IMG/VR virus record: IMGVR_UViG_2627853795_000005
Span: 1 to 32,635 of that record
Strand: one strand, 5' to 3'
Length of the DNA stretch: 32,635 bases
DNA from: a virus
Lineage: Duplodnaviria; Heunggongvirae; Uroviricota; Caudoviricetes
Every line of letters begins with the position of its first letter. Position 1 is the stretch's first letter. Shown piece after piece: positions 30,735 to 32,635 of this stretch. The position numbers and the translations under genes are program-made. The notes under the pieces were generated by a model. That model saw only the letters and a program-made list of their open reading frames with translations, ran no database searches and was not told where the DNA came from.

Positions 30735-30890
30735 AGCTTCAGCCCCTTGTATCCGTTAAATGATTCGGCAACAATCATCACCCACCACGCGCGTAATCTC
30801 ACCCCTGCGCCGTTCTCCCGCCACGGCGACAACAAAAAGCAGTAACCCACTCCGCACGCACATGCGACCATGCCGCACAGGGAGGGAAAG
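30735..30890. promoter_or_regulatory. Divergent promoter region between FI (-) and D (+)
   Basis: 156-bp intergenic region between divergently oriented late genes, each with a good RBS; promoter elements not individually resolved. Confidence 0.35.
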
Positions 30891-32000
30891 ATGACCAACA
30901 CCACCATGCAATTGCTCAGTCAGGGCACAGACCCCGTGAAAATGCCGGATTTTGATATTCTCGCGGAGGGGGAAACGCTGTCCGGCGTGGCAGAGCGCCT
31001 GATGAGTCTGTCACTGACCGACAACCGGGGATTTGAAGCGGACCAGCTCACCATCACGCTGGATGATGCGGATGGTCAGTTGCAGCTACCGCCACGGGGC
31101 GCGCGCCTGACGGTTCTCATTGGCTGGAAAGGCGAACCGCTGACAGAAAAAGGCACTTACATTGTTGATGAAATCGCTCACGAAGGACCGCCGGACAGGC
31201 TGACGGTTTCAGCCAGAAGCGCAGATTTTCGGGATGAATTTAACGTTAAACGTGAGGTGTCCTGGCATGATGTGACCGTTGAGCGAGTGGTATCCGCCAT
31301 CGCTCATCGGTACGGTCTGAAACCGCAAATCAGCGAAATGCTGATGGACATCGAAATCGACCACGCCGACCAGACCGAAGAAAGTGACATGTCCTTCCTT
31401 ACGCGCATGGCGGAAATGCTGGGCGCAATCACCACGGTAAAAAGCGGCAATCTGTTATTCATCATGCCAGGTGGTGGCGTGAACGCACAGGGCCAGCCGT
31501 TGCCCTCGTTCGCCATTACACGCAGCAGCGGCGATCGCCATCAGTTCCGCATTGCTGACCGCGAGGCGTATACGGGGGTGCGCGCCTACTGGCTTGATCT
31601 TAATTACGGGAAAAAGAAAAAAGTCAGCGTGAAACGCCGCAAACCGCCAAAACCCAAAAAGGAGAAAAGCAGCAGCCGTGAAGGTGATTATATGGAAGGC
31701 GCGGAAGGCAATGTGTTTGTGTTACGCAAGACTTATCAGAACGAGCAGGCAGCAAGACGCGCAGCGGCGGCAAAGTGGCAGCAGCTACAACGCGGAGCCG
31801 CATCATTCTCCATCACGCTGGCGCGTGGACGTGCAGAACTCTACCCCGAAATGCATGGCACGGTAACAGGATTTAAAAGCGAGATTGATAATCAGGACTG
31901 GATCATTGCAAAAGCCGAGCACACCATTGATAACAGCGGCTTTACCACGCAGCTTGAGCTTGAGGCAAAAATCCCGGAATGGATAGCGGAAACAGAGTGA
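30891..32000 (+). CDS. D: Tail protein gpD
   Basis: ORF 30870..32000; start placed at ATG 30891 after GGGAGGG RBS; size and position before ogr as in P2. Confidence 0.85.
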   Translation: MTNTTMQLLSQGTDPVKMPDFDILAEGETLSGVAERLMSLSLTDNRGFEADQLTITLDDADGQLQLPPRGARLTVLIGWKGEPLTEKGTYIVDEIAHEGPPDRLTVSARSADFRDEFNVKREVSWHDVTVERVVSAIAHRYGLKPQISEMLMDIEIDHADQTEESDMSFLTRMAEMLGAITTVKSGNLLFIMPGGGVNAQGQPLPSFAITRSSGDRHQFRIADREAYTGVRAYWLDLNYGKKKKVSVKRRKPPKPKKEKSSSREGDYMEGAEGNVFVLRKTYQNEQAARRAAAAKWQQLQRGAASFSITLARGRAELYPEMHGTVTGFKSEIDNQDWIIAKAEHTIDNSGFTTQLELEAKIPEWIAETE

Positions 32001-32042: not shown

Positions 32043-32303
32043 ATGTTCCGTTGTCCGCTTTGTGGCGCATCTGCCCGTATCCGCACCAGTCGTCCGGAAA
32101 ATGATTCAAACACTGTGCGACAAAAGTATTACCAGTGTAACAATCTGGAATGCGGCGTATGCTTCTCAACACTGGAAGCTTTCCATAAATTCACATCAAA
32201 ACACGCCTCCGGCGTTCACTCTTCAGAAGGTATCCCGTGGCATGATCTGCCAGCTTCACACAGGGGAAACAATCAGATGAGTTTGCCTTTATCTCAGAAT
32301 TAA
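32043..32303 (+). CDS. ogr: Late gene activator Ogr (zinc-finger)
   Basis: MFRCPLCGASARIRTSR...YYQCNNLECGVCF: the Cys4 Ogr/Delta zinc finger (CxxC...CxxxxC) matching recalled P2 Ogr; AAGGGAGG RBS. The C-terminal tail is longer than I recall for P2 Ogr. Confidence 0.85.
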   Translation: MFRCPLCGASARIRTSRPENDSNTVRQKYYQCNNLECGVCFSTLEAFHKFTSKHASGVHSSEGIPWHDLPASHRGNNQMSLPLSQN

Positions 32304-32494
32304 CAGGCAGAATTGCCGGAGTAACAAAAAAGCGATAGATTACGTGCGGGTGCCTTTCGGCTGATGGTCGGAGGGAATACCCGAAGGCCAGATGTGGAAA
32401 GGCCCCGGAAAACATTTCTGTTTAACCGAGGCCCTAACATATCTACCTTAAGCAAGTGATAGGTTAGCGCCTCTCCAACAAAGGAGCAAGCGCT

Positions 32495-32635
32495 ATGTCG
32501 CAAAAATCGCTTACGACCATCACGTTCTGCGTGACGGTAATCCTCATCATCTGGATGCTGCACGGTTCGCTGTGTGAAATACGGATGAGCTTTTGGGGAG
32601 CGGAGTTTGCGGCGTTCTTACAGTGTAAGCAGTAA
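32495..32635 (+). CDS. hok: Hok/Gef-family type I toxin (small membrane peptide)
   Basis: 46-aa ORF MSQKSLTTITFCVTVILIIWMLHGSLCEIRMSFWGAEFAAFLQCKQ: N-terminal TM plus the SLCEIR and AAF motifs characteristic of Hok family; AAGGAG RBS; stop codon is the last 3 nt of the window. Confidence 0.65.
   Translation: MSQKSLTTITFCVTVILIIWMLHGSLCEIRMSFWGAEFAAFLQCKQ

Follow-up and report, generated by a model that had tools for sequence, protein, structure and literature searches.

The right end of the prophage and the Hok peptide

The window, that is, the whole stretch of 32,635 nucleotides of viral DNA that was analyzed, begins with the stop codon of a minus-strand integrase gene at position 1 and ends at position 32635, where the stop codon of a plus-strand hok gene finishes. 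As the int and hok stop codons lie at its two ends, the window was cut at the outermost gene ends and not at att sites; it is a P2-family prophage trimmed to its outermost gene ends, with the att sites outside. From a comparison with N63, attL is expected about 94–111 bp to the left of position 1. Toward the right end of the window, a gpD-like tail gene (D), ogr, and hok follow one another in the same orientation, and the hok ORF starts 191 bp past the end of ogr (Table 1). A consensus terminator scan of positions 32200–32635 found no intrinsic terminator between ogr and hok. The first plus-strand terminator, which was read in relatives, comes beyond the window, after the element called fbi that is described below. 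The gpD-like ORF is 376 aa long in the window (30870–32000), and its RefSeq counterpart in UTI89 (L002 7301–8101) is annotated only as an 801-bp "VgrG/Pvc8 family" CDS, together with a small opposite-strand pseudogene across the upstream part. This mismatch in length is probably an inconsistency in the annotated start sites.

Table 1. Features of the ogr–hok region, listed from left to right in window coordinates.
Feature	Position	Strand	Basis
ogr, late-gene activator zinc finger, 86-aa ORF	32043..32303	+	Pfam Ogr_Delta, 52.4 bits
Candidate hok promoter: −35 TTGCCG (32313–32318), 17-nt spacer, −10 TAGATT (32336–32341)	32313..32341	+	read from the sequence, homology
hok mRNA 5′ leader, from the putative +1 (GGGUGCC...) to the hok start region	32348..32505	+	Rfam RF01794, alignment
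tac element, within the leader	32348..32362	+	pairs with downstream fbi in the MFE fold
Predicted Sok RNA, about 60 nt, 5′ end ~32453, 3′ end ~32392	32392..32453	−	alignment to K-12 sokB/sokC
Expected mok start, ATC (32441–32443) instead of ATG	32441..32467	+	mokB/mokC ATG mapped onto the window
Candidate Sok promoter: −35 TTGCTC (32489–32484), 17-nt spacer, −10 TAACCT (32466–32461)	32461..32489	−	read from the sequence, alignment A1
Predicted hairpin sequestering the hok Shine-Dalgarno sequence: AAGGAG (32481–32486) with CUCUCC (32471–32476)	32467..32494	+	fold
hok coding sequence, 46 aa, ATG start; TAA forms the last three bases of the window	32495..32635	+	ORF scan, Pfam, PHROG

The preliminary description had claimed a 46-aa Hok/Gef ORF at the window edge about 190 bp after ogr, and this claim was borne out. 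The peptide (MSQKSLTTITFCVTVILIIWMLHGSLCEIRMSFWGAEFAAFLQCKQ) has a hydrophobic N-terminal stretch, followed by SLCEIR at residues 25–30 and AAF at residues 39–41. It also scored as Hok family in profile searches, the failure of which had been named there as a refutation: Pfam PF01848 (HOK_GEF) gave 29.2 bits (cut-off 22) with an E-value of 7e-7, aligning residues 9–44 with profile positions 7–42 of 42, and PHROG 251 ("MokW-like host killing") matched the whole peptide (E 2e-23). The peptide is therefore confirmed as a member of the Hok/Gef toxin family, with a match far beyond chance. The NCBIfam models HokA (35.9; cut-off 89) and Hok (23.6; cut-off 73) were matched only under their cut-offs, indicating that the peptide belongs to a distinct Hok subtype. 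A collection of 5.8 billion proteins yielded 68 homologue clusters, in which every named cluster was Hok/Gef; the full-length clusters were nearly all 46 aa long and came from E. coli, Shigella, Salmonella, and Klebsiella oxytoca. Pairwise dN/dS values between the window hok and nine relatives ranged from 0.11 to 0.32, with dS values of up to 1.8, indicating that the Hok peptide is under purifying selection.

In the 2025 survey by Escalera-Maurer et al. (bioRxiv 10.1101/2025.08.07.668861), 42 of the 45 Hok homologues tested were toxic. Construct 72_1621 in the supplement of that survey is 96% identical to the window peptide (2 of 46 residues differ), and construct 72_1589 is identical to the Stx-phage copy; the three homologues that the survey names as nontoxic are others than these two. 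The survey text thus implies that 72_1621 is toxic, and by likeness the window peptide is predicted to be toxic as well.

The hok leader, the predicted antisense gene, and the absence of mok

The spacer between ogr and hok had been expected to contain attR and/or the sok/mok control region. It was found to hold the hok leader, a candidate hok promoter, and a predicted Sok-like gene, but neither attR nor mok. The hok −10 box reads TAGATT, TAAATT, or TAGAAT and stands exactly 6 nt 5′ of GGGTGCC at 14 loci in three genera, its conservation spanning E. coli, Salmonella, and Klebsiella; the window shares the −35 motif TTGCC with the Stx-phage copies only. In a consensus promoter scan of positions 32200–32635, no site reached the threshold of 9/12, neither for the hok promoter, whose candidate scored 8/12, nor for the Sok promoter. 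Because the consensus scan gave nothing, both promoters were assigned through alignment to characterized loci and are given as candidates.

The Rfam family RF01794 matched the leader over its full length (model positions 1–157) with 47.9 bits and an E-value of 1.4e-9, which is below the gathering score of 59. Sister loci of the 46-aa subtype scored 36–53 bits, whereas the canonical loci (K-12 hokC, hokB, and an R1-type plasmid) scored 87–118 bits. In these canonical loci, RF01794 (named "sok") matched the hok-sense strand from the mRNA 5′ end to the hok AUG, indicating that it models the hok leader and that the window copy is divergent but complete. The strand matched by RF01794 was opposite to that of the annotated sokC and sokB (L006 602–754, −; L007 667–818, −; L009 332–503, +). 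Since RF01794 models the hok leader and not the Sok RNA, strand calls based on it are inverted. Other Rfam matches nearby (mir-7359, Flavi_TBFV_SL6, and sR1; E 2.6–9.2) were set aside as chance. The hairpin predicted to sequester the hok Shine-Dalgarno (SD) sequence had a folding energy of −11.7 kcal/mol alone, compared with −13.8 kcal/mol for its R1-type counterpart. It was present in the predicted full-length and 3′-truncated folds alike, and its outer six pairs (columns 121–126 with 147–152 of alignment A2) were kept in 12 of 12 relatives.

The minus strand had been proposed as the place to search for a Sok-like promoter, and a candidate of the form TTGCTC-N17-TAACCT was indeed found there. 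Its −35 box overlaps the hok SD, a layout that is the same as that of the R1-type TTGCGC-N17-TATCCT, and its −10 region (AGGTTAGCGCC) was nearly invariant across 12 loci. In alignment A1, consisting of the window, the R1-type locus, hokC, and hokB, the annotated sokC and sokB of MG1655 both projected onto the minus-strand interval given for Sok in Table 1. The predicted Sok RNA folds into an 8-nt single-stranded 5′ tail and a long GC-rich stem-loop (−27.6 kcal/mol, z −4.5), and its predicted terminator has a short U tract of three U residues only. On this sequence evidence, an antisense Sok gene with its own candidate promoter and complementary to the hok leader is predicted.

The expected mok frame was not borne out. 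Beyond the ATC found at the position of the mok ATG, all three frames are closed by TAA (32449–32451), TGA (32457–32459), and TAG (32465–32467), at −46, −35, and −30 relative to the hok ATG and 5′ of the hok SD. In the window type, no ATG, GTG, or TTG start and no near-cognate start (CTG, ATT, ATC, or ATA) was found after the last of these stops. Each of the positive controls (R1-type, hokB, and hokC) has an ORF running from the Sok target into the hok start region. As in the window, mok was absent in UTI89, P88, E2855, the Stx2a phage, phage 86, VT2-Sakai, and one Salmonella copy. The preliminary description had named the lack of a mok-like frame as a finding that would speak against its assignment; mok was not found, but membership of the toxin and of its mRNA in the Hok family stands.

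Two upstream ORFs (32364–32459, 31 codons, and 32392–32451, 19 codons) were considered as substitutes for mok and rejected: both end at least 22–30 nt short of the hok SD, and the Salmonella and Klebsiella copies lack their start codons. The sporadic frames that extend as far as hok in N63 (ATG at −103), Sal_3 (GTG at −28), Klebsiella oxytoca (L013, TTG at −38), and phi345 (TTG at −46) were likewise set aside, having no positional homology to one another. In the R1-type hok of pMTY1886_IncFII (L009 ~444–503), the mok ATG lies 57 nt before the hok ATG and in frame with hok, as in the annotated K-12 mokC/hokC. By the numbering published for R1, the two would be 58 nt apart and in different frames, which would be a 1-nt difference from pMTY1886_IncFII.

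In the R1 literature, translation of mok at least as far as the hok SD is mandatory. As the window lacks a mok frame, coupling between the binding of Sok and the translation of hok must work differently than in R1, hokB, and hokC. We tentatively suggest, as one possibility, that the 46-aa Hok subtype, which occurs in Stx phages, in P88-like phages, and at the ends of elements integrated in Salmonella and Klebsiella, does without mok and that Sok acts on it by a mok-independent route. By analogy, candidate routes would be occlusion of a ribosome standby site located 5′ of the structured region where hok starts or duplex-triggered decay alone. IstR-1 controls tisB by occluding the ribosome standby site.

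The window stops at the hok stop codon, and about 125 nt of the cassette are missing from it, namely the 3′ hairpin, fbi, and the terminator. These elements were read in 99%-identical relatives, among which UTI89 matches the cassette at 306 of 309 bases. On the 3′ side of its hok stop codon, UTI89 carries the hairpin GACGGGGG-N6-CCCCCGTC, then AAAAGGCACCC, which is complementary to the mRNA 5′ end (fbi), and then an intrinsic terminator. The tac sequence at the mRNA 5′ end is GGGUGCCUUUCGGCU. Folding was performed on the window leader joined to the UTI89 tail. The MFE structure of the full-length RNA contained a 15-bp 5′–3′ helix between 32348–32362 and the fbi region, and the RNA trimmed to the 3′ hairpin formed a local 5′ tac stem (32348–32382). 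This predicted change between the full-length and trimmed folds corresponds to the switch from a closed to an open form known from R1. A consensus fold computed for 12 distinct loci had 96.9% of its pair cells paired, compared with 34–41% when the partners were slid, and none of 500 shuffles reached the observed covariation score for these loci. Compensatory changes occurred at four of five pairs of the tac/fbi extension, at three pairs of the 3′ hairpin, and, in another long-range helix, at three pairs. The Stx-phage copies are homologous only as far as fbi, so that fbi marks where the functional unit ends on its 3′ side.

Proposed control and role of the cassette

The start of the hok mRNA, the tac/fbi closure, and the Sok RNA of about 60 nt (32453–32392) are derived from homology and covariation, and the later steps of the following scheme are taken from the R1 paradigm. 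The hok mRNA would start at about 32348, and its full-length form would be shut by pairing of the 5′ tac with the 3′ fbi. As in R1, the closed mRNA would be stable and inert, and slow 3′ trimming to the hairpin past the stop codon would allow the 5′ end to refold into the local tac stem. An abundant and short-lived Sok would then pair with the leader of the trimmed mRNA, leading to RNase III cleavage or a translational block. If transcription of the cassette stopped, Sok would decay first, Hok would be made, and the inner membrane would be depolarized, again as in R1. Prophage loss, shut-off by a superinfecting phage, and induction are possible triggers of such a stop, and addiction, abortive infection, and an aid to lysis are the candidates for the biological role.

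The fixed place of the cassette past D and ogr, with no terminator between, could tie Hok synthesis to late phage transcription. According to one alternative, the main role of the cassette lies in the lytic cycle, either through read-through from D and ogr into hok or through loss of Sok on induction. The terminator data are in line with this alternative, there being none between ogr and hok and the first on the plus strand lying past fbi, as is the shared orientation of D, ogr, and hok. A related observation comes from hokW-sokW of the Stx2 prophage Sp5, for which Takada et al. (2021, PMC8621323) demonstrated toxin and antitoxin activity by experiment and proposed a role in phage release: deletion of hokW-sokW halved phage release, and HokW appeared with mitomycin C induction. 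That system resembles the window cassette in being a prophage-borne hok/sok locus, and the window peptide takes its name from a PHROG called "MokW-like host killing". However, HokW is a different, HokC-like peptide of 51 aa (with a primer-encoded start MKQQKAM), and it is encoded at another Sp5 locus than the cassette beside lom. Moreover, tac and fbi could still close a read-through RNA that is extended at its 5′ end. A main role in lysis thus appears rather unlikely to us, and such a role is in any case compatible with roles in addiction or abortive infection.

Another alternative is that the loss of mok left hok untranslatable and that a silenced cassette is merely carried along. Most chromosomal hok loci of K-12 are silenced by mutation or IS insertion. 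The missing mok frame, the sequestration of the hok SD in both predicted conformers, and a leader score under the Rfam gathering score would all be expected of such a relic. However, the low dN/dS values show purifying selection on the peptide, and the compensatory changes maintain both the 3′ hairpin and the helix formed by tac and fbi. Conservation of the promoter −10 boxes extends over E. coli, Salmonella, and Klebsiella, the mok-less state is common to old and diverged copies, and the ORF is intact in about 1190 genomes. In addition, near-identical peptides are toxic on expression, as the survey text implies. Because of the purifying selection and the structural covariation, the locus is better regarded as a working cassette with a different coupling step, and we consider a relic improbable.

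Position in P88-like prophages and relation to known systems

The hok cassette is phage cargo that is fixed between ogr and attP in P88-like (Xuanwuvirus, P2-family) prophages. Phages P88, PhiR44_2, Chuche, P884B11, and Citrobacter phage Shae_phiSM contain the ogr–hok block at 95–98% identity. The P88 sequence was obtained from virion DNA of this plaque-forming phage, and the attP core published for it (GCCACCCGAAGGTG) corresponds to the first 14 bases of the P88 record and lies 746 bp past hok, with one more gene between. The junction of ogr, leader, and hok was found in 1190 of the 1197 complete E. coli genomes with this ogr, and the ORF was intact in about 1190. About 22% of complete E. coli genomes carry the cassette via this one phage lineage, which matters for counts of "chromosomal" hok loci.

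The ogr–hok block was found at four chromosomal sites: serS/dmsA (UTI89), pheA/raiA (N63, E2855, and 504838), flk (2014C-3075), and ytfP (FAM21845). In UTI89, a 20-bp att repeat lies 261 bp past the hok stop codon; in E2855, an 18-bp att repeat lies 1677 bp past it, and in N63 the repeat comes after the methyltransferase gene. The 18-bp core beside raiA is AAAAAACGCGCCCGAAGG. FAM21845 has the same att core as P88, again 746 bp past hok. A search of the whole window allowing up to three mismatches found neither the UTI89-type nor the N63-type att core. The attR that had been placed in the 190-bp spacer was therefore not borne out, as no core was found in the window and the cores of relatives lie 261–1677 bp past hok. 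The integrase end of the window is 100% identical to that of N63, so that the attR of this prophage is probably the core on the raiA side, beyond the end of the window.

The preliminary description had weighed host DNA at the integration site against phage-borne cargo, and the position of hok inside the P88 genome, the four integration sites, and the att cores beyond hok decide for phage cargo. The opposite reading, in which hok is chromosomal and attR lies inside the ogr–hok spacer, draws on hok being the last gene before host serS in UTI89 and on the P2 att site coming after ogr, but it is refuted by the presence of hok in sequenced phage genomes, by the same block at four unrelated chromosomal sites, by att direct repeats beyond hok together with a window without a core, and by the junction being kept in nearly all genomes having this ogr.

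The interval between hok and attR varied among relatives, holding nothing, a com gene and a DNA methyltransferase gene, a TM2-domain gene in addition to those two, or a yidD-like gene with a hypothetical gene (cargo loci L020 3372–4809, L017 529–1477, L022 3486–4419, and L023 3366–3834). Because the genes between hok and attR are variable, hok is the gene that stays constant at the head of a cargo region which otherwise varies. The Com-family regulator and DNA methyltransferase genes past hok form an arrangement like com/mom of Mu.

Overall, the locus is very probably a mok-less hok/sok cassette, carried as fixed ogr–attP cargo of P88-like prophages and cut by the end of the window. The prophage extends past hok; the window, like any predictor that gave rise to it, truncates the cassette and leaves out attR, perhaps along with additional cargo.

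The cassette resembles hok/sok (parB) of R1 and hokB/sokB and hokC/sokC of K-12 in several respects. It encodes a small transmembrane toxin with the (S/D)LCE motif and AAF, and its leader can be aligned from the 5′ GGGUGC of tac to the hok AUG. A Sok antisense to the same leader segment is predicted, with its −35 box overlapping the hok SD, and the tac/fbi 5′–3′ closure and the 3′ hairpin past the stop codon are shared. It differs from these systems in its Hok of 46 aa instead of 50–52, in the lack of mok, in the lower RF01794 scores given above, and in its location on a prophage and not on a plasmid or the core chromosome. Like the moron loci of the P2 family (old, tin, and Z/fun), it forms a nonessential transcription unit that is self-contained, keeps a constant place in the backbone, and has variable genes after it. 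Unlike the classical P2 moron loci, it lies between ogr and attP and contains an RNA-controlled toxin.

The cassette as such is already known: it is annotated in RefSeq as "Hok/Gef family protein" in more than 1000 genomes and in phage records as "MokW-like host killing", and its subtype has been catalogued. Window-like peptides (72_1621 and 72_1589) belong to Hok 60%-identity cluster 72 of the Hok survey, which also reported that hok is enriched in prophages (bioRxiv 10.1101/2025.08.07.668861). That survey covers coding sequences only and explicitly excludes Mok, Sok, and the mRNA ends, and the ogr–attP position is absent from it. In the searchable literature, no description of mok-less hok loci or of hok in P2-like phages was found. 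Within that literature, and as far as shown, the mok-less architecture and the fixed ogr–attP position are undescribed. The mok-less subtype is a natural test case for control of Hok by Sok without translational coupling, mok being held indispensable in the R1 model.

Copies of the 46-aa cassette were also observed in other phages and genera. In Stx phages (VT2-Sakai/Sp5, 933W, and Stx2 phage 86), the cassette is present, unannotated, as a unit directly downstream of lom, at 44552–44912 of the VT2-Sakai/Sp5 record (L025 1521–1881) and at L024 1521–1881 in Stx2 phage 86. As Sp5 thus has a second hok locus beside lom, the published phenotypes of the hokW-sokW deletion were measured with that locus still present. 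In other genera, the subtype also occurs at the outer edge of integrated elements beside host genes. Salmonella GCA_025291985.1 (L010 3855–5559) has three tandem cassettes ending an element of the HP1_ORF34 type, and in L012 one of these is split off by an IS. In Klebsiella oxytoca (L013), Phd/Fic is followed by hok and then by host ppiD. In a Salmonella lambdoid prophage (among L014–L016), the tail-fibre end is followed by hok and then by host fieF/pfkA.

The N63 allele (L004 3892–4249) is the same as the window (32348–32635) through tac and the Sok stem (columns 1–94 of alignment A2). From the target of the Sok 5′ tail onward the two diverge, and the Hok peptide of N63 is about 55% identical to that of the window. 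This divergence looks like a recombination breakpoint within the cassette, which would change the specificity of the Sok target.
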